The position numbers and the translations under genes are program-made. DNA of 64,000 nt from a bacterium (GTDB lineage Bacteria; Omnitrophota; Gorgyraeia; Zapsychrales; Zapsychraceae): positions 65,014 to 129,013 of the forward strand of contig JAUIER010000001.1 of NCBI GenBank assembly GCA_030429765.1. Direction: 5' to 3'. Of the stretch, positions 5,802 through 60,809 are shown one piece after another (position 1 is the stretch's first letter; every line of letters starts with the position of its first letter). The notes beneath the pieces are model-generated. The model was not told where the DNA came from and did no database searches. It was given only the letters and a program-made list of their open reading frames with translations.

Positions 5802-6648
5802 TGGCGAATTTGTTGAAAAGAAGGACGCAGTTGTTTCGGTTTTTGATCATGGTTTTCTGTATGGTGATGGCGGATTTGAAGGCATCCGTTCTTACAACAG
5901 TCTGGTTTTTAAGTTGGACGAACATTTGAACCGTTTGTATGAGACTCTGCACACGTTGATGATCGATCCGAAAATGACCAAGGATGAAATGTCCAAGGCG
6001 ATTGTCGAAACGCTGAAAATCAATAACCTCACAGATGCCTATATCCGTGTAATCGTTTCGCGGGGTGAGGGGGATCTGGGATTGGATCCCAAGAAGTGCT
6101 GCGGAATGGCGAATGTCATAATTATTGCGGATAAAATTACTCTTTACCCTAAAGAGTTGTATAATAAGGGGATGGAGATTATGACCGTCTCCACGGTCCG
6201 AAATCATCCCGGTGCCATTAACCCGCAATTGAAGTCCCTGAACTATCTCAATAACATTCTTGGCAAGATCGAAGCGGGCAATTCGGGGTACAATGAAGCC
6301 ATTATGCTGGATCATCAGGGATTTGTGGCCGAATGCACGGGGGATAATATTTTTATCATCAAAAACGGACAGATGTCCACACCTAGCCAAGGGATTCTCA
6401 AGGGGATCACCCGGCAGGCTGTTTTGGATATTGCCGCGGACCAGAAAATCCCGGCCCGGGAATGTTTGTTAACCCGGCACGAAGTATATGTCGCCGATGA
6501 GTGTTTTCTGACCGGTACCGCCGCTGAAATCATTCCGGTTGTCAAAGTGGATGGGCGTATCATCGGCAGCGGGACGCCGGGGACAATTACCGAACAAATC
6601 AGAGAGGAATTTCACAAGCGAACGCAGACCGAGGGCGTGAAGTATTAG
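5785..6648 (+). CDS. ilvE: branched-chain amino acid aminotransferase (class IV PLP enzyme)
   Basis: Fold type IV aminotransferase motifs (FDHGFLYGDGGFEGIR, EAGNSGYNEAIMLD). Length about 287 aa. Confidence 0.8.
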   Translation: MKIYLNGEFVEKKDAVVSVFDHGFLYGDGGFEGIRSYNSLVFKLDEHLNRLYETLHTLMIDPKMTKDEMSKAIVETLKINNLTDAYIRVIVSRGEGDLGLDPKKCCGMANVIIIADKITLYPKELYNKGMEIMTVSTVRNHPGAINPQLKSLNYLNNILGKIEAGNSGYNEAIMLDHQGFVAECTGDNIFIIKNGQMSTPSQGILKGITRQAVLDIAADQKIPARECLLTRHEVYVADECFLTGTAAEIIPVVKVDGRIIGSGTPGTITEQIREEFHKRTQTEGVKY

Positions 6649-6675
6649 TCGTCCGCCTGGCGTCGCCAATCTATC

Positions 6676-7173
6676 ATGAAATGTGATCTATGCAATAAAA
6701 AAGCCACGGTTCACCTGACCGAGATCGTGGATGAACAGATGTCGGAAATGCATTTGTGTGAAGAGTGCGCCCGTGAAAAGAGTGTGCAGATGGAGCAGCA
6801 ATTCGGACTGTCTGACTTATTAGCGGGACTCACCGATTTTGGCAAGCAGGTCAAAACTGCCGATAAGGTCGATCTTAAATGTGAGCATTGCGGGATCACC
6901 TATGATGATTTCCGGAAATTCGGACGGCTGGGATGCGGACATTGTTATGACGCGTTCAAGTCGCATTTGTCGACACTGCTCAAAAAGATCCACGGTGCGA
7001 ACCATCATTTCGGCAAAACGCCTAAGAAGCTGCCCAAGGCCGATAAGAAAAAGGTTGAAGACCTGCAGGAACTCAAGAATAAATTGATGCTGGCGATCCA
7101 GATGGAAGATTTTGAAAAGGCCGCCAAGCTTCGCGATAAAATCAGAGATATTGAAAGTAAGAAGTCAAAATGA
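6676..7173 (+). CDS. mcsA: protein-arginine kinase activator McsA
   Basis: Two CxxC zinc-finger pairs at the N-terminus and a C-terminal UVR motif (FEKAAKLRDKIRDIE). Immediately precedes mcsB. Confidence 0.8.
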   Translation: MKCDLCNKKATVHLTEIVDEQMSEMHLCEECAREKSVQMEQQFGLSDLLAGLTDFGKQVKTADKVDLKCEHCGITYDDFRKFGRLGCGHCYDAFKSHLSTLLKKIHGANHHFGKTPKKLPKADKKKVEDLQELKNKLMLAIQMEDFEKAAKLRDKIRDIESKKSK

Positions 7174-8222
7174 AATTGGATTCATTCATTGATAACACCG
7201 GTGAATGGTTGAAGGGAACCGGGGACAATGCCAACATCGTGATGTCGTCCCGGATCAGATTAGCCCGAAATTTGATGGGTTTTCCGTTTCCCAATAAAGC
7301 CAGTAAAAAGCAATTGCATCAGATCTTAACGACGGTTCATAAGGCTATTGAGGAGATCGGTTATTTTGAGACCTCCTCGCTCTTTAAGATCAGTGAGTTG
7401 GACAATGTCGACAAACAGTTTTTGATCGAACGGCATTTGATCAGTCACGATCACGCCACGAACCCGGATGGCAAGGCCGTGCTTATTTCCAAGGAAGAGG
7501 TCTTGTCGGTGATGATTAACGAGGAAGATCATCTGCGGATTCAGGTCATGCAGTCAGGCCTGAATCTTGATGAAACATGGAAGATCATCAATTCGATCGA
7601 CGACGCTCTTTCGGAGAAGTTGGATTTTGCGTATTCCATGCATTGGGGATACCTGACCGCCTGTCCGACGAACACCGGTACCGCGATGCGCGGTTCGGTG
7701 ATGCTGCATTTACCGGCCTTGGTCATGACCAAGCAGATCAATAAAGTGATGGCAGCGATTTCCAAACTGAATTTTGCCTCACGCGGTTTTTATGGTGAAG
7801 GAACCCAGGCCAGCGGTAACATTTATCAGATTTCAAATCAGTTGTCGATGGGGCATGGCGAAGTCGAAGTCCTGCAAAATATCAAGGGACTGATCCGTCA
7901 GGTGATCGAGCAGGAGGAGCAGGCCCGTCAGGCATTGATGCTTCAGAACAAACCGATGCTGGAGGACAAGATCTTCCGTTCGTACGGTATTTTGAAAAAC
8001 GCGCATATTATTTCCAGCCAGGAAACCGTGGATCTGCTTTCCATGGTCCGCCTAGGCGTGGATTTAGGAGTCTTAAAAGATATAACCCGTAAATGCATTA
8101 ATGAATTATTCATCACGATTCAACCGGCCCATCTGCAGAAGATCGGCAAGAAAAAATTAAGCGCATCGGAACGTGATGCGAAAAGAGCGAATCTTATTCG
8201 AAAAAAATTGGGAGGAACATAA
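7170..8222 (+). CDS. mcsB: protein-arginine kinase McsB (ATP:guanido phosphotransferase)
   Basis: Phosphagen-kinase catalytic domain (CPTNTGT motif). ATGA overlap with mcsA. Followed by clpC. Confidence 0.85.
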
Positions 8223-45306: not shown

Positions 45307-45768
45307 ATGGGACAGGCAATTATCTCCAACAAGAAGGCGTTTCGGGATTTTGAGATCCTGGACAAGTGGGAATGCGGCATCGAGCTCAAGGGCTCGGAGG
45401 TCAAATCCATTCGTGCGGGCCATGTGAACTTCAAAGATACCTTTGCCCGGGTCGAAAAAGGGGAGATCCTGCTTTACAGCCTGCACATAGATCCCTACAA
45501 ACAGGCCAGTTACGAAAATGTGGATCCGGACCGTGTCCGCCGGCTCCTGCTGCACAAGCGTGAGGTCCGAAAGATCGATAACGAGGTCACCCTCAAAAAT
45601 TACGCCCTGATTCCAACCAAGCTCTACTACAACAAACGCGGATTCGTCAAGGTCGAACTGGCCATGGGCAAGGGCCGAAAATTCTACGATAAGCGTGAGG
45701 TGATCAAGAAGCGTCAGATCGCCCGCGATCTCAACCGGGCCATCCGGACCGGTTCCCGCCGCCGCTAG
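45307..45768 (+). CDS. smpB: SsrA-binding protein
   Basis: SmpB fold motifs (NKKAFRDFEILD...GIEL.GSEVKS) and a basic C-terminal tail. Located 3.3 kb upstream of ssrA. Confidence 0.9.
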   Translation: MGQAIISNKKAFRDFEILDKWECGIELKGSEVKSIRAGHVNFKDTFARVEKGEILLYSLHIDPYKQASYENVDPDRVRRLLLHKREVRKIDNEVTLKNYALIPTKLYYNKRGFVKVELAMGKGRKFYDKREVIKKRQIARDLNRAIRTGSRRR

Positions 45769-47613: not shown

Positions 47614-47979
47614 TTATATCAGATAATTGAAGTTGGTGGGCTGATGAGGTGAAGTTTTTCGGATAAAGATATTTTCGAGCAGCTGATGCCCGCCGGTCAC
47701 CGGTTCGTCCGAATACTCCAGAAACGTGACGATGCGTCCCGTATCCCGGTAGAGCTCCTGTTCGTGGATCCGCCGCGTGACGGTGATCAGCTCGGCCTGG
47801 CCGATCCGCTCGGACATATCTCCCATCAGCGTGTAGCGGTACTCGGTGAATCCCATTCGACGGACAATCCGCAGCGAACACACCAAGAAATGACCTTCAT
47901 CTTGGTCCGGTTGATCATATGGCAGACGTTTGATGTGGATTTGCAGATGCCCGTCGATAGTAATGGGATTTGTGGTCAT
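47614..47979 (-). CDS. hypothetical protein
   Basis: ORF with no recognisable domain. Start set at the MTTNP codon. Confidence 0.35.
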   Translation of the reverse strand: MTTNPITIDGHLQIHIKRLPYDQPDQDEGHFLVCSLRIVRRMGFTEYRYTLMGDMSERIGQAELITVTRRIHEQELYRDTGRIVTFLEYSDEPVTGGHQLLENIFIRKTSPHQPTNFNYLI

Positions 47980-48388
47980 ACCTAAATTATAAACCTCCTG
48001 CAAGTATTTGCCATGAGTAGACATACGCATCCGGGTGGGTAGTTTTACCTATCCGTCTGGAGGCCGGATATTTAGCATTTGCCAAGTTCCAGAGCATCGA
48101 CTATACTTATAGACTGTTCTTTAAAAATTTGGGGGTGATCTGGTTCTGCTTCGTTTCCGACATTTTGAATTGGAGTTTTGAAATGTCGTTAACTTCGCAG
48201 GAACTAGTTCGAAGCAGAAATTCTTCGAAGCTCCTAGAGTATTTTCTGATCAAGCATAGAAGATTCTAAGCTTGATCATCCGTTCTTTAAAAATTTGGGG
48301 GTGATGTGGTTCTGCTTCGTTTCCGACATTTTGAATTGGAGTTTTGAAATGTCGACAACTTCGCAGGAACTAGTTCGAAGCAGAAATT

Positions 48389-48432
48389 CTTCGAAGCTCC
48401 CGGTTTTTTATATTGTGTAGCGAAGAAGATTA
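48389..48432 (+). repeat. 45-bp direct repeat flanking the GIY-YIG gene (left copy)
   Basis: CTTCGAAGCTCCCGGTTTTTTATATTGTGTAGCGAAGAAGATTAT. Near-identical right copy at 48796-48840. Confidence 0.7.
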
Positions 48433-48494
48433 TAGAGCTATCCTTAATCTATGCATATGCGCATAGCTCCAAAAGGTAGAGAGGAGAATGTGCC

Positions 48495-48752
48495 ATGCAG
48501 TATGTATACGTGTTGGTTAGCCAAGTAAATAAATCAAAAATCTATATTGGCAGAACTGAAGATCTAGATTCTCGCTTTAGACAGCACAATTCTGGTCAAG
48601 GCGATTATTCAAGGCGCTGGAAACCTTGGCAAATTGAGACCTATATTGCCTTTTCATCAGAATCATTGGCAGTCAAATTTGAAAAGTATCTCAAGGGTGG
48701 ATCGGGCTTTGCTTTTCTAAAGAAAAGATTTTTACCTGAGATTGATTCTTAA
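48495..48752 (+). CDS. free-standing GIY-YIG nuclease-domain protein (YhbQ/UPF0213-like, 85 aa)
   Basis: Motifs YVYVL...KIYIGRTEDLDSRFRQHNSG match the GIY-YIG catalytic core, including the conserved Arg. GAGGAG ribosome-binding site 8 nt upstream. Confidence 0.75.
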   Translation: MQYVYVLVSQVNKSKIYIGRTEDLDSRFRQHNSGQGDYSRRWKPWQIETYIAFSSESLAVKFEKYLKGGSGFAFLKKRFLPEIDS

Positions 48753-48795
48753 ATATATTGAAGTTTGCAATCCTTGTGCTCGAAGATTCAATCCT

Positions 48796-48840
48796 TCGAA
48801 GCTCCCGGGTTGTATTATTGTGTAGCGAAGAAGATTATTT
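48796..48840 (+). repeat. 45-bp direct repeat flanking the GIY-YIG gene (right copy)
   Basis: CTTCGAAGCTCCCGGGTTGTATTATTGTGTAGCGAAGAAGATTAT. Confidence 0.7.
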
Positions 48841-49023
48841 GTTCTTTAAAAATTTGGGGGTGATCTGGTTCTGCTTCGTTTCCGACATTTTGAATTGGAG
48901 TTTTGAAATGTCGACAACTTCGCAGGAACTAGTTCGAAGCAGAAATTCTTCGAAGCTCCTAGAGTATTTTCTGATCAAGCGTAGAAGATTTTAAGCTTGA
49001 TCATCCGTTCTTTTAAAATTTGG

Positions 49024-49682
49024 GGGTGATGTGGTTTCGACTTGAGATGTTTGAGTCTTAGGTGGCATGCCGAGGAAGTCTGGTTGGCCTCGTTAATCAT
49101 CCGGACAAACAATAAATGGTAACGATTCAACGTTAACATTCGCAGACTTTGAAAGAGAAACTGAGAATTCAGTGGCTCCTCAAGGTTTCGCACCTGTATT
49201 AGCTTAAGAATAAGCTAATCCCTTATACAAATCATGTCTGTGGATTTGTATAAGGACCTTTACAGACTAGCGCAGTTGAGGTCTAGGCGACTGTTGCGAA
49301 ATTTTTAGACTGGCCGTCGGTAATCCTGTGCATTGGAGTGCAGGCGGTAAGATTAATAAATGTACTAAGCATGTAGAGGCTTAAGGCCGGCTCGTTAAGG
49401 ACCGGGGTTCGATTCAAAGGAGTCGACTTTTGGAGTAATCCAGAATGCTAAACTTGGCTTACATCAAGGAAGCCCAATTCTCAAACCTTATCTTGCGAAG
49501 GGTAATCTTGAGGGGTGAAAGCCCTGCAGAGACTTCTCCGGAAGGAGAGATGAAAGGCTCTACCAATATTGGTAAATCTATGCCTTTCATAATACGCCAA
49601 GCTCCTCGACGAATGTTGAGGATGAAGAGATAGTCCATGCTGATCGGGTAACGATCAGATTAGTGTCCCCGCACCTCCACTT
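49024..49682 (+). ncRNA. ssrA: tmRNA (SsrA) gene interrupted by an intron-like insertion in the T-loop
   Basis: 5' end GGGGGUGAUGUGGUUUCGAC resembles the E. coli tmRNA 5' end. PK1 region UGCCGAGG...GGCCUCG is present. Tag frame ends ...APVLA with UAA-GAA-UAA. Near the 3' end is CUAAGCAUGUAG. The T-arm is CGGGGUUCGAU | insertion | UCCCCG, followed by the acceptor strand CACCUCC-A-C, which pairs with the 5' end including a G3:U pair. Confidence 0.85.
49416..49667 (+). other. candidate group I intron (about 252 nt) within the tmRNA T-loop
   Basis: The 5' exon ends in U. Intron GUCGA (49424-49428) pairs with exon UCGAU, giving a U:G wobble at the splice site (P1). The GGA immediately 5' of it pairs with exon 2 UCC (P10). 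There is a GACU...AGUC P7-like pairing with a UCUCC-GGAA-GGAGA hairpin between (P8-like), a CUGAUCG-GGUAA-CGAUCAG hairpin (P9-like) and a terminal G at 49667. No ORF lies inside. Confidence 0.65.
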
Positions 49683-49691
49683 TAAATTAAA

Positions 49692-49743
49692 GGCCTTGTA
49701 AATTGTTGTTTTATAATAATTTACAAGGCCTTTTGTTTTTTAA
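49692..49743 (+). terminator. intrinsic terminator of ssrA
   Basis: 15-bp hairpin AAGGCCTTGTAAATT...AATTTACAAGGCCTT followed by a T-rich run. Confidence 0.8.
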
Positions 49744-49755
49744 AATGTTTTAGTG

Positions 49756-49806
49756 CCCAAACAGTGCCCAAATCAATCCAAAACATCGGTAAACAAATCT
49801 AACACT
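49756..49806 (+). repeat. intergenic repeat R (GTGCC-N5-GGTGCC ... AAAACA.CGGTAAACAAA.CTAACA), copy 1
   Basis: Three roughly 50-bp copies with over 80% identity at 49756, 50818 and 52456, plus a short fourth copy at 52694. All are intergenic in the island downstream of ssrA. Confidence 0.7.
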
Positions 49807-49917
49807 ATATTACTACGAACATTTACCCTACCTTTCCGATCTCCTTTTTGTTAACATATTTCAATCATAAAAAGTGGCTCAATTTTCGGGGGACGCTTAA
49901 CTATAGGGGAAATTAAC

Positions 49918-50817
49918 TTGAAATTCGTTTTTGTATTGACGTTTCATAAAGATATTGAAATCTGCCAAAACCGTATCAGAATGCTGCGTAGGCACAATCC
50001 TGACATACCGATTTACGGGGTTTATGGAGGTGAGCCGGATGAAGAAGCGGCTTTTCGCAAGGCCTTAGAAGGGAGATTAGACGGCTATTATTATTTTGAT
50101 GAACCTAAGGATGGCATGTGGAAATGGTTTAATTTTGATCTTCTGGTGACGAAATGGTACACAGACATAGGGAAAGATATGGACTTTGATTCGGTAATTT
50201 GGGTGCAATGGGATCAGCTCGTATTAGCGCCTGTAAAAGAACTGTTTAAGAACATAAAAAAAGGTGAAATGTTCATCACTGGTTTGCGGCCAGCTCAGGA
50301 AGTTATGGATTGGTGGTGTTGGGTGTCGAAGGACGCAGAGCAGGCGCCACCTGGGCATGGATATGAAACCTATATGGACTTTCTAAAGCATCTTAAGGAA
50401 GAATATAATTACAGTGAAGAGCCGGTATTTTCTCAGCCTTTTATAAGTATTTTCCCACGCGAATTTTTAGATCCTTACAGCAAACTAGAGTGGCCTATCG
50501 GTGGATACGGTGAATATCGTATGCCCATGTATGCACAAGTTTTTGGGGTGCCGTTTTACCGGTCTCATCATTATGAAGTATGGTGGCCCGATGATCCCGA
50601 GCAAAGGAATCCATCGGATGAAGAGAGGGTACTAACAGCATGGCAGGGTCCACTTCCCCTAAAACGAATTATGGAATTGTCCGCCGGTGAGAACGGACAC
50701 AAATTGATTCATCCCTATAGTAGAATTTACCCTCTGAATGCACTTGATTGGCTGAGATTGCTCAGGGACAAATTCTTAAACCGAAGGTATAGTCAGCCGG
50801 ATTCGGAAGAAAAGTGA
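49918..50817 (+). CDS. hypothetical protein (Trp-rich, no recognised domain)
   Basis: TTG start with a GGGGA ribosome-binding site. 299 aa. First gene of the island. Confidence 0.45.
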   Translation: MKFVFVLTFHKDIEICQNRIRMLRRHNPDIPIYGVYGGEPDEEAAFRKALEGRLDGYYYFDEPKDGMWKWFNFDLLVTKWYTDIGKDMDFDSVIWVQWDQLVLAPVKELFKNIKKGEMFITGLRPAQEVMDWWCWVSKDAEQAPPGHGYETYMDFLKHLKEEYNYSEEPVFSQPFISIFPREFLDPYSKLEWPIGGYGEYRMPMYAQVFGVPFYRSHHYEVWWPDDPEQRNPSDEERVLTAWQGPLPLKRIMELSAGENGHKLIHPYSRIYPLNALDWLRLLRDKFLNRRYSQPDSEEK

Positions 50818-50870
50818 GTGCCCAAACGGTGCCTAACGAAAACCAAAACACCGGTAAACAAACCGAACAA
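50818..50870 (+). repeat. intergenic repeat R, copy 2
   Basis: GTGCCCAAACGGTGCCTAACGAAAACCAAAACACCGGTAAACAAACCGAACA, starting at the stop codon of the preceding gene. Confidence 0.7.
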
Positions 50871-51028
50871 GAGCTAAATAACCGATCACAAGGATTCATT
50901 CATTGCGGAATACATTTGTGTCACATCTTGTAATGAAAGGCAGTGATTTTTTAGCGGCTCGTTGCTATTGATGTTCTCGATTATTATTGTAATTTATTTC
51001 AGACCATCCGGAAAGTTAGGAGATTAAA

Positions 51029-51592
51029 ATGAAGAAAGTATTTTTGATAGTAACAGTATTGATGAGTATATCGATATTTTCGCAAGCTCAAGAGGCTGAT
51101 GTCCGCAAAGAATATTATCCGAATGGTCAAGTTCAATATGAAAGAAGTTATGTGAATGGTATACGACATGGTGTTTCAAAGATGTATTCAGAAGATGGTA
51201 ATTTGTGGCAAGATGTTATGTATGTTAATGGAAAAAAAGAGGGTCTTTGGAGGGAATATTACCCGAGTGGTGAGTTAAAAGAAACTCGTATTTATAAGAA
51301 CGATAGTGTTAATGGAATTGCCGTTAGATATTTTGAGGATGGGAAGCGTGAAAGAGAAACAATGTGGGTTAACAATATGCCTGACGGCAATGAAGGTATA
51401 AAAACTTGGGATTATTATGAAAATGGAAATCTAAAAGGCGAATATTTTTTTGCTCATCGTAAGGGCCATCGTAAGGATTATTATGAAAATGGTCAGGTAT
51501 CATTAGAGATGCAAATTGATAATGGTGAATTTTACTGTAAGAATTATGATGAAAGTGGAAGTTTTGTATCTTCTGAATGTCCAACTATGTAA
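51029..51592 (+). CDS. small secreted MORN-variant (YwqK-like) repeat protein
   Basis: Signal peptide plus about 6 MORN_2-like repeats (EYYPNGQ...). Third paralogue in the window. Confidence 0.65.
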   Translation: MKKVFLIVTVLMSISIFSQAQEADVRKEYYPNGQVQYERSYVNGIRHGVSKMYSEDGNLWQDVMYVNGKKEGLWREYYPSGELKETRIYKNDSVNGIAVRYFEDGKRERETMWVNNMPDGNEGIKTWDYYENGNLKGEYFFAHRKGHRKDYYENGQVSLEMQIDNGEFYCKNYDESGSFVSSECPTM

Positions 51593-51634
51593 GAAGATTG
51601 CTTTTTAGAATCTTTTACATTTTTTGAAGCCCAA

Positions 51635-52387
51635 ATGAAGTCCCGTAAGTTTATCCAAAGAGACAATTGGTATGGTATATTATCAGTTATGAAAATAATT
51701 CAATTTAAAATTCTATTTATGATGATGGTAATGTTGTTGAGTCCGTCGTTAAGTTTTGCTGATAGTTGGGCAGGATTTGAAGGTGTTCAAGATAAGTGGA
51801 AGGCGTTTTCAGAAGAGCATATGAGTCTAATGCGAGAGGAGTTTGAACAAAGCTCTTGGGCCAAGCGGGGAAAAAAATTTGAGATGAAATGGACTGAATT
51901 AAATCCAACTCTATTTAAGAAATATTTTCCAGACTATAAGTTTTTCGGAGAAATGGGTTCTTCATTTGCCATCGATAAGGCGGGATCAATAATTCGATTT
52001 AAAAATATAATGCTACTAGGAAGGAAAAACATAGCATCTCCAGATCTACAAATTAAATATTTTTTTTCGTTTCTTGAAGAGTCAGATTTGAAAGTGACTG
52101 ATTCTGAAACCGCTGCCGATGTGGGGCGAATGATTGACTGGATTCAGAGTTCAGGTAGATCGAATTATAAAACAGGTAGTCCGGATGATTATAGGGTAAC
52201 TCGAAAAGATTATGGGTGGTATGTAAATACCCCCGATTTTAGTAGAGGCACGTCTGCTTATCTGCATGGGGATTATGAAATAATTACGGACGAAGTAGGT
52301 AACATATTGGATGTTAAGCGCCACGATATGATGGGCGGAATTGGCGCTGGGTCTGGTGGTGCGGTGAGAAAATTAGAAGATATTTAG
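51635..52387 (+). CDS. hypothetical secreted protein
   Basis: Probable signal peptide beginning at the internal Met (MKIIQFKILFMMMVMLLSPSLSFA, about 51692). No recognised domain. Confidence 0.45.
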   Translation: MKSRKFIQRDNWYGILSVMKIIQFKILFMMMVMLLSPSLSFADSWAGFEGVQDKWKAFSEEHMSLMREEFEQSSWAKRGKKFEMKWTELNPTLFKKYFPDYKFFGEMGSSFAIDKAGSIIRFKNIMLLGRKNIASPDLQIKYFFSFLEESDLKVTDSETAADVGRMIDWIQSSGRSNYKTGSPDDYRVTRKDYGWYVNTPDFSRGTSAYLHGDYEIITDEVGNILDVKRHDMMGGIGAGSGGAVRKLEDI

Positions 52388-52423
52388 TGTGTGCTTACTA
52401 CGTAAGATAAATAAATTTAAAAA

Positions 52424-52455
52424 AGGCACTTCACACATGTGAGGTGCCTTTTTTG
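52424..52455 (+). terminator. conserved terminator hairpin family, copy a (AGGCACTTCACA-CATG-TGAGGTGCCT plus T-run)
   Basis: GC-rich stem plus T6. The same GGCACTTC...GAGGTGCC stem recurs at 53584, 59144 and 60642. Confidence 0.7.
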
Positions 52456-52510
52456 GTGCCCAAACGGTGCCTAACGAAAACCAAAACAACGGTAAACAAA
52501 CCTAACAAAA
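52456..52510 (+). repeat. intergenic repeat R, copy 3
   Basis: GTGCCCAAACGGTGCCTAACGAAAACCAAAACAACGGTAAACAAACCTAACA, immediately after terminator copy a. Confidence 0.7.
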
Positions 52511-52693
52511 CCTAAACAACCGGACAGTTTTAAAAAGGTGTTTTCCGATGAGACTTGAAGCAATATATTGAAAATAAAGGGTTTATGTAAAATCGACTAA
52601 ACGTATCCCCGCACCTCCATAATTTAAATAAGGGTTTGTAAGTAACTGTCACACAGCTATTTGCAAACCCTTTTTTATTTTGGGATGCCGAGG

Positions 52694-52710
52694 TGCCGAA
52701 ATGGTGCCTT
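52694..52710 (+). repeat. short R-like motif (GTGCCGAAATGGTGCCT)
   Basis: Retains the GTGCC-N5-GGTGCC core. Lies 180 nt upstream of the first PEP-CTERM gene. Confidence 0.45.
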
Positions 52711-52889
52711 AAGTGAATCCCTAGGCTGTCACAGTTGGTCCTGGTTTGTCGTCGGGTGTCCTGTTGACCAAGATATTATCGATTGATAACATTAATCGAA
52801 AACTGTTAGAGATGAGAAATACCTATGAAGTATCTGATAGCCACTGTGATTGTTTTCAGTTGTACATTTGGTAAAGCAGTACCTTTAAA

Positions 52890-53558
52890 TTGAGAGAGGC
52901 GATGAAAAAATTATTTGGATTATGTTTCACGACGATACTAGTCTTCTGTATGCACTCCTCGGCTTTTGCAGTTATCGTGTATGACTCTTTTGGTCCGGGT
53001 CAAACTTACAGTTTTGGGCCTATATATCCGGTCGAAAATTATTTCACTTCTAGTGTTGGATCAAATAAACAACATGCAGATCAGTTTATACCAGCTGTGG
53101 ATGTTAATCTTGGTCAGATAGATGTAGCAGTTCAGGATGCTTTTCAAGTTAATAAAGTCGATCTAACTATTATGACTGACAGTTTGGGGGTGCCCGGATC
53201 AATTGTAGAGTCGTTCAGCCTACAGGATGCGATGGCCCGCTCAAATACGCCTAATGCATTTGTTACGGCCACATCCATTGTCAGGCCGGTACTGCAGGCA
53301 GGTGTTCCATATTGGTTGGTAGTGGCCGCTCCCGAGAACTTAGTTCAAATAGCGTATTTTATGAACGATCAGGATATATTCGGGCAGCATGCCGTGCGTC
53401 AAAACGGGGGGCCTTGGGAGGTAAGTAGAGAAATTCAGGGTGTTTTTAGAATCACAGGAGATGCAGTAAATGCGAGTGCCGTTCCCGAACCAACCACCGT
53501 ACTCTTATTTGGCACAGGAATGATCGGCGCCGCTTTACGACGTAGAAAACAAGCGTAG
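52890..53558 (+). CDS. PEP-CTERM sorting-domain protein
   Basis: Signal peptide. C-terminus VPEPTTVLLFGTGMIGAALRRRKQA, which is PEP, a TM helix and a basic tail. Confidence 0.8.
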   Translation: MREAMKKLFGLCFTTILVFCMHSSAFAVIVYDSFGPGQTYSFGPIYPVENYFTSSVGSNKQHADQFIPAVDVNLGQIDVAVQDAFQVNKVDLTIMTDSLGVPGSIVESFSLQDAMARSNTPNAFVTATSIVRPVLQAGVPYWLVVAAPENLVQIAYFMNDQDIFGQHAVRQNGGPWEVSREIQGVFRITGDAVNASAVPEPTTVLLFGTGMIGAALRRRKQA

Positions 53559-53582
53559 CCAATATATATAAAATTTCAAAGA

Positions 53583-53614
53583 AGGCACTTCACACCCGTG
53601 AGGTGCCTTTTTTA
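53583..53614 (+). terminator. conserved terminator hairpin family, copy b
   Basis: GGCACTTCACACCCGTGAGGTGCC plus T6. Confidence 0.7.
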
Positions 53615-53654
53615 TTGCCTTGAGTCAATGTTTAGCAGGTAGTAAAATATTCAA

Positions 53655-54284
53655 ATGAAAAAGATATTACAAGGCGCTTACAAAATTAGCTGGTTCTGTA
53701 TTTCTCTTTTTTCAGCGATTTCATGCACACATTTAGAATCTTTGTCCAATAGGTCCGGTCCGGTCTCTATGCCGTTCTGGGTATATGTTGATTATGCTTC
53801 ACCTGATAATCATTACGATGCCTCCGGATATATGGGCGATCACAGAGATATAAGTGTGGATCTCAACAGTATCAATTTCCCGTATCGGGGAAATAGTGCT
53901 CTGAAATTTAGTATGGTCGCGAGTGATGCGACTGGAGAGGGATGGGCCGGTCTATATTTTCAGGATCCGCCGAATAATTGGGGGACCATGCATGGCGGGT
54001 ATAATTTACAAAATGCCAAGAAACTTACGTTTTTTGCCAGGGGTAAAACCGGTAAAGAGTTGATTTACCAGTTTAAAGTCGGTGGTATCAAAGGAGACCT
54101 CCAGGCGGATACCGCGGTGGCTTTTATACAGAATATTCGTTTAACTAAGGACTGGAAGCAATATACGATTAATTTAGAAGGTTATAATCTTTCTAATATC
54201 GTCGGGGGCTTCTGCTGGATTGCTATCAAAAAAGACAACCCGGATGGCTTAACATTTTACATCGATGACATACGTTTCGAATGA
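53655..54284 (+). CDS. hypothetical lipoprotein or secreted protein
   Basis: Hydrophobic N-terminus with Cys (LFSAISC). Beta-rich sequence. No recognised domain. Confidence 0.45.
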   Translation: MKKILQGAYKISWFCISLFSAISCTHLESLSNRSGPVSMPFWVYVDYASPDNHYDASGYMGDHRDISVDLNSINFPYRGNSALKFSMVASDATGEGWAGLYFQDPPNNWGTMHGGYNLQNAKKLTFFARGKTGKELIYQFKVGGIKGDLQADTAVAFIQNIRLTKDWKQYTINLEGYNLSNIVGGFCWIAIKKDNPDGLTFYIDDIRFE

Positions 54285-54552
54285 ATCTGGTGACTAAACA
54301 CCCGTGCCAGACTCCACGCAATCGAATCATGCCAAAATCCCACCATGATGTAATGGCAAGTAGGTATCGTGAATTATTTTAAAAGATTGATGTCGTATAG
54401 ATCAGCTGCATCTCTATGTGAGGTGTCGTTTTTGTACTCAAGTGGTAGAAATGTTCTGATCTTGAGTCAATGAAGAAACGGGAGTAGAATAACCTAAAAA
54501 CAGAAAGTTTTAGCTTATTATTTAGCAAGTTGGAAAACATGAGGAAATACTG

Positions 54553-54897
54553 ATGCTTCGTGCAACATCCCGCCAATTATTATTCATTTTGGTCTATCCA
54601 ATATTTCATATAGCACTAATCTTTATTTCCATTCGAATGTTGCTTAGTACAGGATTTAATCCCTCAAGCCTTGTTCATGCTACTAGAACACAAATGCTAC
54701 TTACGGAAGTAGGGTATTATTTATCGCCAATCTTAATTTGGCCGTGCTTCATTCTAGAAGGTTTTGGATTTCAACATGACAGCTTGGTTTTAGGTGGAAG
54801 AAATATTGGTGATTATGTTGCATTTTATGCGTGCGGCATCATCTATGCCATAATTGGGATAGCCTTATTCAATATTTATAAGAAGATTTTCAAGTAG
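54553..54897 (+). CDS. hypothetical membrane protein
   Basis: Four predicted TM helices. Gene lies in an AT-rich block. Confidence 0.4.
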   Translation: MLRATSRQLLFILVYPIFHIALIFISIRMLLSTGFNPSSLVHATRTQMLLTEVGYYLSPILIWPCFILEGFGFQHDSLVLGGRNIGDYVAFYACGIIYAIIGIALFNIYKKIFK

Positions 54898-55183
54898 AGC
54901 AATTTTGCTTTTTGCAGAGTTGTTTATTTATTGGCTTCGATATTTAATGTGCAAAGGAGTAACTCTATTGTTTAGAAAAGACGTAGTATTGATGCTGATT
55001 ACGAATTTGGGATTTATTGTGATTGCTGCTTTAATGTCCTTGATTTTGCCTAATATATTTTAGTGAAACATAGTCATGAACGTACATAGAAATTAAAATC
55101 TTTGGTCTACGCAATGGCTAGTTTTTGCGAAATTTTATCTTTATAGCTGAGTATATGCCTCTAATTAAAGTGAGATACAGAAT

Positions 55184-56194
55184 ATGAAATTTACACCTGT
55201 TTGGAATAGACATCTACATCAAGCAATAAATCGTAATGGTTTAATAGTCGAAGAAAGATTTATATACGTTACTGAAAGAGGCCAATTTCTTACTAAATTA
55301 GAAGTTCTAACGGGAAAAGAACTATGGACGGTTAAAACAGGTGATGCTTGGGGGTGGCTGCTTCGATCTGAATCGAAGTTATATTATTTAACACAATCTG
55401 GGACTTTATTGGAAGTAAATATTGAAACAGCAGAAATTAGTAAGATTAGTGAGGAGGAGTTTTACTATCCAGGATATATAATTCGATCCAAAGATTTTTT
55501 TATAACAGGAGGGTGGAGAGGGTATTCGGATCTAGTTTGTTATAATTCAGCGTTATCTAGGAAGTTATGGACTAAAGATACCAGCAGCCAATCATTAATA
55601 GATTTTTCAATTCCATATATTATCCGAAACAAACTTTTGTTCACTGTTAATCATAGCTCAAAAAGAATAATAATATATGAACTCATTTCTGGTGAGCTTA
55701 AGGCTGAGATGGAACTTCCAAAAAATATAGGATGTCCAGACTTGGGGAGGTCATATCAGATTATAGACGGTAGGATCACGTTTGTGTCGTGGGACGGCAA
55801 AATATATACACTTGCTGACGATTTCAGGAGTTTGCATTGTGAGGATTTAAACGTGGATTGCGTATCCACGAATCTACCACTCTTTGATGGGGAAAATATT
55901 TTATTTGAAGACGGAAATAGTAACTGTATTTTATACCGACGTAGTGACAGCAAAATATTGTGGCAAATTAAGATTGAAAACAATTTCAAGACCAATATTT
56001 TTGCATGCAAACTAATGAATGAATGCTATCTAGTAGGAGGATCGACGGGGCAACTAAGTATTGTGGATGAGGAGGGAATCAGACGGAGAGATATAAAATC
56101 TGAAAGACGAATCACTACGGGTATATCTAGAATTAATGACCTAATCGTTTTATGCACGAAAAGTGATATTAAGGTATTGAGTTTCAATGAATAG
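55184..56194 (+). CDS. hypothetical cytoplasmic beta-propeller-like protein (PQQ/BamB-like repeats)
   Basis: Repeated hydrophobic/Trp beta-strand pattern (KELWTVKTGD..., RKLWTKDT..., SKILWQIKI...). No signal peptide. Gene lies in an AT-rich block. Confidence 0.4.
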   Translation: MKFTPVWNRHLHQAINRNGLIVEERFIYVTERGQFLTKLEVLTGKELWTVKTGDAWGWLLRSESKLYYLTQSGTLLEVNIETAEISKISEEEFYYPGYIIRSKDFFITGGWRGYSDLVCYNSALSRKLWTKDTSSQSLIDFSIPYIIRNKLLFTVNHSSKRIIIYELISGELKAEMELPKNIGCPDLGRSYQIIDGRITFVSWDGKIYTLADDFRSLHCEDLNVDCVSTNLPLFDGENILFEDGNSNCILYRRSDSKILWQIKIENNFKTNIFACKLMNECYLVGGSTGQLSIVDEEGIRRRDIKSERRITTGISRINDLIVLCTKSDIKVLSFNE

Positions 56195-56314
56195 AATACA
56201 GTGAAACTCGGAAAAATTAGACGGATAACCAAATAAGCAGAGTAGGATGATCTACGATGCATTCCTAGTCAAAAACTATATAGCGCATCTTAATTATAAA
56301 GCCTAATTGGGGAG

Positions 56315-56824
56315 ATGAATTTGGACTATGAACCAATTTTAAAGAAACGATTTAGAAGTGTTCAGTTTCTCACATTGCAAATACTGATAACGATCCTAAT
56401 TTGTGGATGTGCGGCATATTTTGTGTCGAAAGATCAACAAATCGTTAATGAGGATGTCGCTGTTTTTAGGTTAATTATGATTAGCGTTTCAGTAACTATG
56501 GTTTTATTGCTACCAATTGCAAGAAAGGTAATACCTAAGATGAGAAGATCCGTGTCAGCAAAGTCTAGAAATCTGTCTGACGAAGAAATCTATATTAATA
56601 AACTTATGGTTTCCGATGCTGTAGGAGTGTCCGTTTCGCAATGTCCTGCCATTGGAGGTTTAGCAACGACTTGTATTTCCAATAACATAACTGACTATTA
56701 CATTTTAGGAGGATTTGGTCTTGTTATTCTATTTTTAAATCTTCCTAACTATTCAAAGTGGATAGAGAAATTTGAAAGAGAATTCAATTTAGCTACTTGG
56801 AGACAAGGCAGTTTTACACAATAG
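56315..56824 (+). CDS. hypothetical membrane protein
   Basis: Four TM segments. Confidence 0.4.
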   Translation: MNLDYEPILKKRFRSVQFLTLQILITILICGCAAYFVSKDQQIVNEDVAVFRLIMISVSVTMVLLLPIARKVIPKMRRSVSAKSRNLSDEEIYINKLMVSDAVGVSVSQCPAIGGLATTCISNNITDYYILGGFGLVILFLNLPNYSKWIEKFEREFNLATWRQGSFTQ

Positions 56825-56863
56825 TGCTATAACTATTAGTCGGCAAAAAGAAGTTGTGAAATT

Positions 56864-57121
56864 ATGAAATATGAAGGTACGACCTTAAACGAACGTCTTT
56901 TGAAAGCGGGTTTGTTAGATGGGTTCAACAGAGTGTCTCGAAAAGGGGACAGGGAAGGTATGATCGCAATTTTGAAACGAGTCGAACTGGATGAGCGACA
57001 AATCTCATATACTGTTGATATTATTACTCGTCGGCAGAGGAAGTTCCTAGTTTTCATGTATGGATTTTTGATAGTTACAGCGATATTGATTTTATTGGGG
57101 TTTGTAGTAGAGGGAATTTAA
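56864..57121 (+). CDS. hypothetical small protein with C-terminal TM helix
   Basis: 85 aa. Tail-anchored topology. Confidence 0.35.
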   Translation: MKYEGTTLNERLLKAGLLDGFNRVSRKGDREGMIAILKRVELDERQISYTVDIITRRQRKFLVFMYGFLIVTAILILLGFVVEGI

Positions 57122-57137
57122 GAGTGCGGGTAGAGAG

Positions 57138-57536
57138 ATGAAGATTTTGGAAAGGATATTTTGGGTAGGGTTGACTTTATTAACACTGATATTGATTTGG
57201 ATAGGTTTCAGTCGCTTATTGGATTCACCCAATAATTGGGTTGGGGTTCTGGTTGCGACCTTGTTTTTCCTGATTATGGGTACGGTGTCATTCGGTAAGT
57301 GTATATTGAGTTTTAGCGAGATAGCAAATTGGAAGGATTATGACACAATAGAGAATTTGAACTATTTTTTATATATGCTTGCATCAGTTGCTTTTGTAGG
57401 GGCTGGATTATACCTAATTGCTTCCGAGGGGATGTCCATGGGGGCTTTAGGCGGAATAGTATTCTTTGGATTTGGTGGCATTATTTTTGGGTATATGTTG
57501 AATTCAAATTTAAAACGGATACGGAAGAATAGGTAG
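57138..57536 (+). CDS. hypothetical membrane protein
   Basis: Four TM segments. GGAGG-like ribosome-binding site. Confidence 0.4.
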   Translation: MKILERIFWVGLTLLTLILIWIGFSRLLDSPNNWVGVLVATLFFLIMGTVSFGKCILSFSEIANWKDYDTIENLNYFLYMLASVAFVGAGLYLIASEGMSMGALGGIVFFGFGGIIFGYMLNSNLKRIRKNR

Positions 57537-57669
57537 TATATGGCAATCCTAAGAATTAAATGGAGCAGTTAATATATTGACTTTACGATGGATGCAAAGT
57601 CTCGGTAGGAGCGTTAACATCCATGATCAACAAAAAACGAAATCTAACAAGCCCGGAAACTCATAATCT

Positions 57670-58527
57670 ATGCTCGCCGTAAGAATACCAAATCTGCTGC
57701 TTCCTCTCACCCTAACCATCGCTCTATCAATTCTCCTGGGCGGTTGCGCGGCTTCGGGGAAGGGCTATGATTACACTCAGCCAGACCGGCCGCGGTTTGT
57801 CTCTGCGGATGCGGTTGCGACCAGGCACACCGACCCGGAGTCAATAAAGATAGTCTCCTACAATATCAAATTTGCCGAACGCGTCGACGAGGCCATCCAA
57901 CTCTTGCAGTCGCACGCGGAGCTTCGAGATGCCGATTTTATCTTTCTTCAGGAGATGGACATGACTGGTGTCGAACGGATTGCTGCGACGCTGAATTATA
58001 ATTACGTCTACTATCCGACCTCCAAGCACCCTTACCATCAAAAAAATTTCGGCAACGCGATTCTGTCCAAATGGCCGCTCATTGAAGATGAAAAGATTAT
58101 CTTTGGGCCTTCACGTTATGTGAGTCGGCAACGGGTCACGGTGAGGGCGCGCGCTCAGCTCCATAATCAAACCGTTGACCTCTTTAATGTCCATATGCAT
58201 GTGAAGATCAAGCCGCATGAACGGGCCAGGCGTCTTCAAACATTGATCGAGAAATCTGACGAGAGAAGCGATTACGTGATCATCGCGGGTGATTTTAATA
58301 CCTATTGGCCGCGGGAAAGTCGATATGTACGGGAAGCGCTCATCAATCATCGTTTTGATTTCGCAACCAGCGAAGTGGACTGGACGTTTCGGCACTGGAT
58401 ATTCCTGAACAAGGCGTATGTTCTGGACTATATTTTTGCCCGAGGTTTTGAGGTGTTGGAGGCGGGAGCCGTGGAAGACCGGTCGGCCAGCGATCATCTG
58501 CCGATTTGGGCTGAGCTGAAACTATAG
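57670..58527 (+). CDS. endonuclease/exonuclease/phosphatase (EEP) family lipoprotein
   Basis: Lipobox LLGGCAAS. EEP motifs (VSYNIKF, LQEMD, GDFN, SDHLPIWAEL). Confidence 0.7.
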   Translation: MLAVRIPNLLLPLTLTIALSILLGGCAASGKGYDYTQPDRPRFVSADAVATRHTDPESIKIVSYNIKFAERVDEAIQLLQSHAELRDADFIFLQEMDMTGVERIAATLNYNYVYYPTSKHPYHQKNFGNAILSKWPLIEDEKIIFGPSRYVSRQRVTVRARAQLHNQTVDLFNVHMHVKIKPHERARRLQTLIEKSDERSDYVIIAGDFNTYWPRESRYVREALINHRFDFATSEVDWTFRHWIFLNKAYVLDYIFARGFEVLEAGAVEDRSASDHLPIWAELKL

Positions 58528-58659
58528 ATGAAAGCGTAGAGCGCTTCAGGTCTTCAAATAAAGTGATTCCACGAAATTTTCTTTCCTGATAAAATAGGCG
58601 TCCGATCAAGAAAAGTACCGTGATGTCTAATAATAACCGTATATGAGGAAGGTATTATC

Positions 58660-59085
58660 ATGCTTTCAAGAAAATCCAAACCTTCATCCGATGTGCAACA
58701 CATCAGTCTTTCAATTAAACGCAGCTACAATGAGGTTTACAAATTTACGTCCAATCCGGCTAATCTGCCCCGCTGGGTCGAAGGATTGACGGGTAATATC
58801 AGTCAGGTCGATGGTGAATGGGTGGCCGAATCAACCAACGGAAAGATCAAAGTTCGTTTCACCGATCCTAATCCATACGGCGTGCTCGATCATGAGATGG
58901 AATTGGAGAATGGCTACAACTTTACAAATGTCCTGCGTGTCGTTCCGAATGAGCAAGGCTGTGAAATTATTTTCACGTTGTTTCGCCAGTCGGATAAGAG
59001 CAAATCTGAATTTGAGGAAGACGGAAAAATGGTCGAGGCCGATCTGGCCAAGTTGAAGAATATTCTCGAGGCGGAGAGATCATGA
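58660..59085 (+). CDS. SRPBCC (START/Bet v1-like) domain protein
   Basis: Approximately 140-aa helix-grip pattern (NPANLPRWVEGL...). Moderate confidence. Confidence 0.5.
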   Translation: MLSRKSKPSSDVQHISLSIKRSYNEVYKFTSNPANLPRWVEGLTGNISQVDGEWVAESTNGKIKVRFTDPNPYGVLDHEMELENGYNFTNVLRVVPNEQGCEIIFTLFRQSDKSKSEFEEDGKMVEADLAKLKNILEAERS

Positions 59086-59142
59086 CCGTGTTTCAAAAAT
59101 CTTAGACTCTTTAATAAATTGGAATGTTGTAAAAAATATGCA

Positions 59143-59175
59143 AGGCACTTCGCTGAGGCGAGGTGCCTTTTTTTT
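59143..59175 (+). terminator. conserved terminator hairpin family, copy c
   Basis: GGCACTTCGCTGAGGCGAGGTGCC plus T8. The inner stem differs from copies a and b by compensatory changes. Confidence 0.7.
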
Positions 59176-59276
59176 GTTAATGAACGGCTGTAAATGAGCT
59201 GTCCTAGTGTGTCCAATACTGTCCCGTTGTCCCGTGAAACAGGCCATGCTATAGTGTAACCATTAATTGGCAACCA

Positions 59277-59894
59277 ATGGGGCGACGTGTTATGCAAAAA
59301 ATGACAACAATTTTAGTGTGCTTCATGGTCACTATGCTGGGTGCGAGCCGGGCCGATGCTTTAGTGCTTTTTGACGGATTATTTGCTGAAGGAGTTATCG
59401 GCGGTGTGGGTACAAATCCGAACGTAATTTTTACGGCATCTTACCTGGGAATTGCGGATACGACGATTTTTGGCGGTGAAACTTTCGATATCACGGACCC
59501 TACCAATGTGGGGCGAATGTTCACAGTATCAGCAGGAGATGCAGGGTTTACTGAATTCAGTTCAAATATCACAAATGGAGTAATTCAGGGAGTATTGGTT
59601 GATTTCGCCTTTGGTGGTGGATCAGCACAATCAGTTTTTTTGGAGTCAAGTTACTTTGGAAGTAGCTCGTTTAGTTTGAACAGCTATGACTATGCAGGTT
59701 ACGCAATAGACTCTTATAAAGTCACGATTGATTCTATTACCCAGTCGCCAACCAATGCTGATTTTTATGAATTTTCAAGTTCACTCATTGTCAATGGTGA
59801 GCGAATAACAAATGTTGTCCCCGAACCCTCCACCATGCTGTTGTTCGGTGTGGGTATGCTTGGGGTATCATGGCGAAGAATGAATCGCCACTAA
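59277..59894 (+). CDS. PEP-CTERM sorting-domain protein (paralogue)
   Basis: C-terminus VVPEPSTMLLFGVGMLGVSWRRMNRH. Shares internal motifs (SPFSLNSYDY, YKVTIDSI) with the 60005 and 52890 proteins. Confidence 0.8.
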   Translation: MGRRVMQKMTTILVCFMVTMLGASRADALVLFDGLFAEGVIGGVGTNPNVIFTASYLGIADTTIFGGETFDITDPTNVGRMFTVSAGDAGFTEFSSNITNGVIQGVLVDFAFGGGSAQSVFLESSYFGSSSFSLNSYDYAGYAIDSYKVTIDSITQSPTNADFYEFSSSLIVNGERITNVVPEPSTMLLFGVGMLGVSWRRMNRH

Positions 59895-60004
59895 AGTATG
59901 TATGTGTTCATAATATAGTAACAAACAGATACTTAATATAGATGTCCATTGGAATAATTTACTTAAACATTGGGTAACGATATTGAAAAACTAGGTACTT
60001 ACTT

Positions 60005-60619: not shown

Positions 60620-60640
60620 GCCCCATTTATAACAATTTAA

Positions 60641-60672
60641 AAGGCACTTCGCTCAGGCGAGGTGCCTTTTTT
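60641..60672 (+). terminator. conserved terminator hairpin family, copy d
   Basis: GGCACTTCGCTCAGGCGAGGTGCC plus T7, followed by GTGCCCC. Confidence 0.7.
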
Positions 60673-60809
60673 TGTGCCCCTACCGGACATTATTATCCCA
60701 TTACAAAATCAGTTGATTCTTATAATTGTCGACGGGGATGGCGGATGCTATTCTAAGAATGACCGCGGATTTCTTGCCACGTCGTCTAATCAATTATGGG
60801 AGGGTTTGA

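Follow-up and report, generated by a model that had tools for sequence, protein, structure and literature searches.

Can a tmRNA gene whose T-loop has been broken open still deliver a tmRNA, and what is it that breaks it open? This is the question raised by the ssrA locus of the Omnitrophota genome considered here. The stretch of DNA that was analysed (the window, 64 kb in length) carries a single copy of ssrA, in which the 3′ strands of the T-stem and acceptor stem are separated from the rest of the gene. The original prediction held that ssrA is split by an intron in the T-loop, and Rfam, which places a tmRNA match and a group I intron match side by side, leads to the same conclusion; the helices of the insert specify it further as an IA-type group I ribozyme. 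That the gene is split is confirmed, with Rfam scores far beyond chance. It is very probable that the locus is an Omnitrophota ssrA divided between nucleotides 6 and 7 of the T-loop by an endonuclease-less, 252-nt, self-splicing group I intron of the IA type, a reading in which we infer splicing and the activity of the product from the nucleotide sequence.

Layout of the Interrupted ssrA Gene

The interrupted gene occupies 49022-49679 on the forward strand, 658 nt up to the discriminator base. Its 5′ exon (49022-49413, +) is supported by the Rfam tmRNA match (RF00023, 122.3 bits), by ARAGORN on the spliced sequence and by alignment with relatives. It opens with the 5′ strand of the acceptor stem, GGGGGUG (49022-49028, +), continues through PK1 (CCGAGG at 49070-75 paired with GGCCUCG at 49086-92, +) and further pseudoknots, and ends with the 5′ strand of the T-stem, CGGGG (49403-07, +), followed by T-loop nucleotides 1-6, UUCGAU (49408-13). 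Within this exon ARAGORN reads the tag frame, GNDSTLTFADFERETENSVAPQGFAPVLA plus stop, at 49118-49207 (+; tmRNA positions 97-186) with GGU as the resume codon; the frame terminates in APVLA-UAA-GAA-UAA, a hydrophobic C-terminus followed by a stop, as is characteristic of a tmRNA. The intron (49414-49665, +) then intervenes, supported by the Rfam group I match (RF00028) and by helices checked base by base, and the short 3′ exon follows at 49666-49679 (+), comprising T-loop nucleotide 7 (U49666), the T-stem strand CCCCG (49667-71), the acceptor strand CACCUCC (49672-78) and the discriminator A49679. The pairing of this 3′ exon was checked, and its sequence equals the 3′ end of the uninterrupted ssrA in two related loci (L004 and L005). 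CCA is not encoded, the bases after A49679 being CUU. Just downstream, a 20-bp hairpin and the T-run behind it form an intrinsic terminator (49689-49743, +), the sole strong terminator-like site in 47900-49950.

The elements from which the split had been recognized (PK1, the end of the tag, CUAAGCAUGUAG, the T-stem and the 3′ strand) are all present, with internal coordinates that had been set uniformly 2 nt too high: GGGGGUG begins at 49022 rather than 49024, CGGGG-UUCGAU lies at 49403-49413 rather than 49405-49415, and UCCCCG begins at 49666 rather than 49668. The segment to be removed likewise has the proposed length of 252 nt and lies at 49414-49665, not at 49416-49667. Its deletion yields a 7-bp acceptor stem (GGGGGUG/CACCUCC) with G3.U, a 5-bp T-stem (CGGGG/CCCCG) and the 7-nt T-loop UUCGAUU, so that the restored T-loop and G3.U-bearing acceptor anticipated by the original prediction hold when the pairing is checked. 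Only with 49414-49665 removed does the RNA combine G3.U, an A discriminator and a loop of the GUUCGAnUC type. The protein partner of tmRNA is also encoded in the window: smpB (45307-45768, +), 3.3 kb upstream of ssrA, is intact (Pfam PF01668 SmpB, E 8e-53), and the nearest genomic homologs of its product all come from Candidatus Omnitrophota MAGs, at 61-71% identity.

Anatomy of the Intron

The helices of the intron were read from a single sequence, and each was checked base by base for Watson-Crick or G.U pairing. P1 joins the end of the 5′ exon (UCGAU, 49409-13) to an internal guide (GUCGA, 49422-26) and places the wobble pair U49413.G49422 at the 5′ splice site. Directly adjoining P1, on the 5′ side of the guide sequence, GGA (49419-21) pairs with UCC (49666-68), the first bases of the 3′ exon, forming P10. 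P2 (49430-34/49439-43) is followed by P3 (49453-58/49596-601), P4 (49464-69/49506-11), P5 (49473-80/49497-502, with an AA bulge) and P6 (49512-16/49521-25, closed by a GAAA loop). P7 is built from G49529 and 49531-34 on one strand and 49632-36 on the other, with A49530 bulged beside the pair G49531-C49635, which we take to be the usual look of a group I guanosine-binding site. P7.1 (49535-39/49544-48) and P7.2 (49550-58/49582-90, with an inner hairpin) come after the 5′ strand of P7 and before the 3′ strand of P3, which is the IA-type arrangement, and P8 (49603-10/49615-22) and P9 (49640-46/49652-58) complete the core. The intron ends in G49665, its terminal (omega) G, and the intron-exon junction is unique, since a boundary shifted by 1 nt would end in U. 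The U.G pair in P1, P10, the terminal G and a P3-P9 core with the P3/P7 pseudoknot are found together in one insert.

Folded on its own and without constraints, the intron adopts a minimum free energy structure that contains P2-P6, P7.1, P7.2, P8 and P9; its stability corresponds to z = -3.98, and none of 200 dinucleotide shuffles was as stable. No homing endonuclease (LAGLIDADG, GIY-YIG, HNH etc.) is encoded inside the intron, whose sole ORF, of 62 aa and without a Pfam match, is a mechanical frame across the core helices; the intron is hence not of the mobile, endonuclease-bearing kind. A blastn comparison of the intron with phage records gave no match.

Recognition by Annotation Tools and Authenticity of the Sequence

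Searching the whole 64-kb window with Rfam at the gathering threshold returned exactly two matches, the tmRNA and the group I intron. The RF00023 match (49030-49416) reaches 122.3 bits against a gathering score of 47 (E 2.6e-47), and its alignment shows the 3′ T-stem and the entire 3′ acceptor strand as deleted; the score lies below the 158-194 bits of related genes because this 3′ strand is displaced. The RF00028 match (49403-49658) covers the model from 1 to 253 of 253 positions at 50.9 bits (E 5.4e-10), which, with a gathering score of 50, makes it marginal, just 0.9 bits above the cut-off; the seed alignment of this family holds 12 sequences, none of them a bacterial intron. A different T-arm in the uninterrupted sequence, which had been named as the covariance-model result that would speak against an intron, was not seen by Rfam.

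ARAGORN found no tRNA or tmRNA in the native window, nor any in 48900-49800 when run with its intron option. Once 49414-49665 was deleted, it called a 407-nt tmRNA with the 29-codon tag GNDSTLTFADFERETENSVAPQGFAPVLA*, in agreement with the spliced length of about 407 nt that had been estimated. This comparison with and without the deletion had been suggested as a check, and it came out as anticipated. The expectation that such a gene breaks automatic annotation is likewise borne out, as ARAGORN fails on the native DNA and the Rfam alignment loses the 3′ T-stem and acceptor.

The interruption is present in a second data set as well. A Logan contig of 1897 nt (L015, run ERR3428548) corresponds to window positions 48951-50847 with 0 mismatches, and since it is independent and identical, the interrupted ssrA is not an artefact of one assembly.

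Comparison with Related ssrA Loci

Seven related ssrA loci were compared (L002, L003, L004, L005, L040, L046 and L047), and in L040 the genes that flank ssrA are those found beside it in the window. In all seven, Rfam matches the complete tmRNA model (1-374, 158-194 bits) without interruption, and in none does it report a group I intron. The in-silico spliced RNA aligns from end to end with ssrA of L002-L005 at 60-74% identity, and its T-arm and acceptor, CGGGGTTCGATTCCCCGCACCTCCA, are identical in L004 and L005. The tags of the relatives are homologous and long, start with G or A and end in PALV. The exon junction follows from the alignment to these intron-less relatives without recourse to an intron model; the junction GGGGUUCGAU/UCCCCG given in the original prediction is the one required both by them and by the group I rules (a -1 U paired with G in P1, and a terminal G). 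The comparison shows the intron to be an insertion specific to this lineage, in an ssrA that is ordinary in other respects and was inherited vertically. Judged by these sequences the intron is sporadic within the clade, all seven sampled relatives being without it. Contigs of the nearest sister species, in which the intron and the upstream array described below were looked for (L038, L039 and L043, with SmpB 82% and 71% identical, and L044), stop short of ssrA or lack it, and homologs of the downstream 299-aa protein were not syntenic with ssrA.

The Upstream Array and the GIY-YIG Gene

The region upstream of ssrA is rearranged. A sigma-70-like promoter match, TTGCCA-17-TATACT (48079-48107, +; 10/12 consensus), is probably the promoter of ssrA, a function suggested by the related loci: TTGCxA/TTGATA-17-TATACT stands upstream of ssrA in L040, L003 and L002, and in these a leader of about 47 nt ending in GTTCTTTAAAAAT runs into the mature ssrA 5′ end. 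A -10-like TTTAAAAAT directly before each G1 was also considered as a promoter and rejected, being too near the mature 5′ end, and TTGCxA-17-TATACT fits better. Between the promoter and ssrA lie three near-identical units of 104 nt, at 48131-48234, 48297-48400 and 48856-48959 (all +), each preceded by the ssrA leader (GTTCTTTAAAAATTT before unit 1) and beginning with the first 15 nt of ssrA; a 30-nt probe of leader and 5′ end matches the units with 1-2 mismatches. From the promoter to the terminator behind ssrA there is no strong terminator-like site, so the whole of about 1.6 kb may be one precursor.

In the fold predicted for each unit the two ends are paired, and there is a long arm and, right next to the 3′ end, a hairpin like a T-arm, an outline that resembles a tRNA-like domain. 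The fold has z of about -3.3 to -3.5 in two copies, among them unit 1 with -3.5, and -1.9 in the third, and the three units are too alike for covariation analysis. A permissive Rfam scan of the array (48030-49030) gave no match even at E up to 5. A reading of the units as internally deleted tmRNA copies found no support, as their interior, outside the shared leader and first 15 nt, is no closer to tmRNA than shuffled sequence. A metagenome scan for GGGGTGAT-N0-6-TCTGCTTCGTT returned 22 matches, none with the paired strand or a nearby tmRNA, so that all are chance matches. In its present form the array occurs in none of the seven relatives. One of them, L003, has a single decayed unit between promoter and ssrA, which keeps the CUGCUUCG...CGAAGCAG stem and not the acceptor-like closure, and its close relative L002 has no unit.

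A free-standing GIY-YIG domain gene of 85 aa (48495-48752, +; Pfam PF01541, E 4e-15) is found between units 2 and 3, outside the intron and 660 nt upstream of it. On either side of it stands a copy of a 59-nt direct repeat of family D2 (48375-48433 and 48780-48838), made up in each case of the 3′ end of a unit and spacer. Its homolog in L002, L003 and L004 (43-46% identity) comes 170-370 nt after ssrA, and that in L005, at 35%, about 3 kb after ssrA; the exact protein has no record in the contig index. In a further contig (L048) the 3′ fragment of a tRNA and a CGAAG-rich module present in duplicate precede a GIY-YIG gene.

The array may stem from unequal crossing-over between copies of the 30-nt repeat of leader and 5′ end, may be the scar of a small GIY-YIG-associated cassette moving together with the ends of tRNA-like genes, or may consist of functional processing elements. 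The retention of the CUGCUUCG/CGAAGCAG stem in L003, though L002 is without a unit, and the position of the GIY-YIG gene behind a tRNA 3′ fragment in L048 were counted for a functional or a cassette reading, and the closure that is not conserved in L003, the close similarity of the three copies, which leaves no room for covariation, and the lack of further homologs in the searches made were counted against. On the whole we regard it as rather unlikely that the units are functional, whether as RNase P "punctuation" or as SmpB/AlaRS-binding mini-RNAs co-transcribed with ssrA, or that they are the footprint of an undescribed small mobile cassette, driven by the GIY-YIG nuclease and targeting the ends of tRNA-like genes.

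The GC content drops from about 50% to about 38% over 48-60 kb of the window, a region that encodes PEP-CTERM, MORN-repeat and unknown proteins. A genomic island integrated at ssrA, which would explain the drop, was considered and rejected, as Pfam detected no integrase domain in the ORFs of this region and no direct repeat of the ssrA 3′ end was found. An intergenic motif of the low-GC region recurs downstream of ssrA in L005, and because the motif is common to both, the region looks native to the clade.

A Plausible Pathway and Its Alternatives

The structural prerequisites for a group I pathway are present at this locus, and from them we infer catalysis and function along the following lines. 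The precursor would be transcribed as far as the terminator at 49689-49743, and the intron would fold into its P3-P9 core, with P1 (UCGAU/GUCGA) forming between the internal guide and the last bases of the 5′ exon. Free guanosine, bound in P7 at G49531-C49635 near the bulged A49530, would attack after U49413, and the terminal G49665 would next take the same binding site. P10 (UCC/GGA) would align the 3′ exon, and ligation would give UUCGAU|UCCCCG, restoring the 7-nt T-loop, the 5-bp T-stem and the 7-bp acceptor stem with G3.U, the alanine identity pair. Processing of the 5′ end and addition of CCA would then lead to a tmRNA of about 406 nt, presumably alanylated by way of G3.U, which together with SmpB would carry out trans-translation and add the tag (A)GNDSTLTFADFERETENSVAPQGFAPVLA to stalled proteins.

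The same locus could be read as a dead gene, in which the insertion destroyed the T-arm and left a decaying pseudogene, with trans-translation lost or provided by another copy. It would account for the failure of ARAGORN on the native gene and for an unusually rearranged locus with three partial 5′ duplicates upstream, and a further copy could lie elsewhere, the portion of the genome examined being 64 kb. However, both exons are intact, and their T-arm and acceptor are the same as in relatives that look functional; an open frame encodes a tag homologous to the tags of the relatives; smpB is intact; and the insert carries all the elements that self-splicing requires, placed at the very junction whose ligation restores the T-loop. 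Moreover, 883 genes of this arrangement have been catalogued (PMC11915505), and we consider a dead ssrA very improbable.

Doubt could also be directed at the nature of the insert, which might be an insertion of another kind, for instance a miniature mobile element, or a spacer that RNases cut out to leave a two-piece tmRNA. The marginal Rfam score (50.9 against a gathering score of 50) leaves room for this, as does the blastn search against phage records, from which no homologous intron was available for covariation. Against it, the match extends over the full model with E 5.4e-10, P1, P10, the terminal G and the P7 bulge with its G-C pair are all correctly placed, and the insert has neither terminal inverted repeats nor a target duplication in the sequence as read. 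Furthermore, the known two-piece tmRNAs stem from circularly permuted genes (PMC11915505), whereas ssrA here is not permuted. On all these grounds an insert other than a self-splicing intron is scarcely credible. A chimeric join that put an unrelated group I intron inside ssrA would be easier to imagine in a repeat-rich region such as this one, where contigs built from short reads are interrupted within the upstream array (L001 stops at 48144, and L015 does not begin until 48951), yet L015 covers the whole interrupted gene with 0 mismatches and the guide of the intron is complementary to both exon ends, which is not expected from a random join; an assembly artefact is next to inconceivable. 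The reading that we retain is thus the ordinary ssrA carrying a self-splicing intron in its T-loop.

Comparison with Known Intron-Form tmRNA Genes and Other Group I Introns

For annotation, a gene of this kind means that ARAGORN-based pipelines will score the genome as lacking tmRNA, and that estimates of MAG completeness or calls of "loss of trans-translation" could be wrong for such genomes. Intron-aware tools, namely tFind and the tmRNA_intron covariance model, already address this gap. The latter applies a criterion of at least 150-225 bits and is available as a supplementary file, being absent from Rfam 15 (PMC11915505). The duplicates of the ssrA 5′ end upstream and the relocated GIY-YIG gene are the sole features of this locus from which new findings might come. 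The intron itself is one more sporadic, endonuclease-less example at position 7; it agrees with the repeated invasion already described in the literature and does not extend it.

Intron-form tmRNA was reportedly first described by Williams in 2002, with a subgroup IA3 intron, in Clostridium botulinum. Earlier work had counted 343 such genes, and a 2026 survey found tmRNA genes to host 6% of bacterial group I introns. The 2025 tmRNA database distinguishes three major forms of tmRNA gene, standard, permuted and intron, and the last comprises 883 unique sequences from 21 phyla, in every one of which a group I intron interrupts the T-loop (PMC11915505). The majority of these introns lie at internucleotide position 7. 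Of all intron-form sequences just 4.1% carry an endonuclease gene, the mean intron length is about 293 nt, and the boundaries follow common rules, in that the exon nucleotide at -1 is a U pairing with G in P1, the intron closes with G and the T-loop is reconstituted (PMC11915505). For Omnitrophota, Supplementary Table 2 of the database paper gives 600 genomes with 416 standard genes and 18 intron-form genes at position 7 (PMC11915505). The claim that intron-containing tmRNA genes are very rare was thus overstated, given 883 unique sequences and 18 instances in this phylum at the same T-loop position; the kind, the site and the phylum of the split ssrA are already documented.

The present gene shares with the intron-form tmRNA genes its host gene, its site (position 7, after UUCGAU) and its boundary rules, the arrangement being UUCGAU|intron|U-CCCCG with the T-loop reconstituted. 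Its intron measures 252 nt against the mean of 293 nt, and at 658 nt the whole gene compares with 545 nt for the shortest one reported; like 96% of the catalogued cases it is without an endonuclease gene. Nothing essential differs, and the phylum was already represented. The architecture of subgroup IA introns such as that of the phage T4 td gene is said to have been laid out by Michel and Westhof in 1990, and P7.1 and P7.2 are common to td and to the intron described here, a likeness of architecture and not an assignment by a subgroup model. A P7.1 region in tmRNA introns is also mentioned in the database paper (PMC11915505). In contrast to introns of the td kind, the present one has no homing endonuclease ORF, and its sequence has no detectable similarity to phage records. 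Group I introns in the anticodon loops of tRNAs are likewise small and ORF-less, lie in a loop of a tRNA-like structure and break annotation tools; these sit in true tRNAs, however, whereas the intron of this ssrA is placed in the T-loop of a tmRNA, whose tRNA-like domain is without an anticodon loop.

Repeated ssrA 5′-end units upstream of the tmRNA gene

An array (48116-49021) separates the genuine ssrA from its conserved promoter (48079-48107) and includes three near-identical units of 104 nt (48131-48234, 48297-48400, and 48856-48959). The ssrA leader GTTCTTTAAAAATTT stands before every unit, and each unit opens with the initial 15 nt of ssrA. The predicted fold of these units has the outline of a tRNA-like domain, and no match to them was found in Rfam. 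They are missing from six of the seven related loci with an uninterrupted ssrA, and the locus L003 carries a single decayed unit (2838-2915), which retains just the CUGCUUCG/CGAAGCAG stem. The copy number of the array is that assembled in the 296-kb NCBI contig, and it should be regarded as provisional, because two short-read Logan contigs from run ERR3428548 break exactly within the end units, L001 ending at 48144 inside the first and L015 starting at 48951 inside the last.

A free-standing GIY-YIG gene of 85 aa (48495-48752, + strand) is also located upstream of ssrA, flanked by 59-nt direct repeats (48375-48433 and 48780-48838). Homologs of this gene are found 170-370 nt downstream of ssrA in the related loci L002, L003, and L004, and in a further locus, L048, a GIY-YIG gene (7460-7681) comes after a 3′ fragment of a tRNA and a duplicated module rich in CGAAG. 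This pattern suggests a small cassette that is linked to the ends of tRNA-like genes.

3′ end and tag of the tmRNA

CCA is not encoded in the window ssrA, in which CUU follows the discriminator A (49679-49682), and therefore 3′ maturation must depend on a CCA-adding enzyme. Among related loci, CCA is likewise unencoded in L002 and L005, and is encoded in L003, L004, and L040. The tag (49118-49207) is unusually long with 29 codons, and its resume codon is GGU (Gly) instead of the usual Ala codon. Tags of the relatives are also long, with 22-24 or more codons, G or A as the first residue, and PALV at the end. In L046, which is a more distantly related Omnitrophota locus, smpB and ssrA are separated by a tRNA gene (3201-3274), and 2.6 kb downstream of ssrA there is a tyrosine-integrase-like gene (6413-7300).

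Low-GC block and its intergenic elements

GC content falls from about 50% to 35-44% across 48001-60000, and the genes of this block, directly downstream of ssrA, encode PEP-CTERM, MORN-repeat, beta-propeller, and unknown secreted or membrane proteins. A classical ssrA island was considered for the block and ruled out, because both an integrase and a repeat of the ssrA 3′ end are missing from 48001-60000. Near-identical terminator hairpins of one family, AAGGCACTTCRC....GYGAGGTGCCTTTTTT, stand after four genes, all within the block (52407-52460, 53566-53619, 59126-59179, and 60625-60678). An intergenic module, GTGCC-CAAACG-GTGCC...AAAACAnCGGTAAACAAAC (49753-49819, 50818-50884, and 52456-52522), usually with a hairpin terminator immediately before it, precedes successive ORFs by 164, 211, and 434 nt. 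This module, a possible promoter or regulator-binding element of the PEP-CTERM gene set, is kept in another Omnitrophota genome, that of L005, with copies at about 14176, 15155, and 16089.
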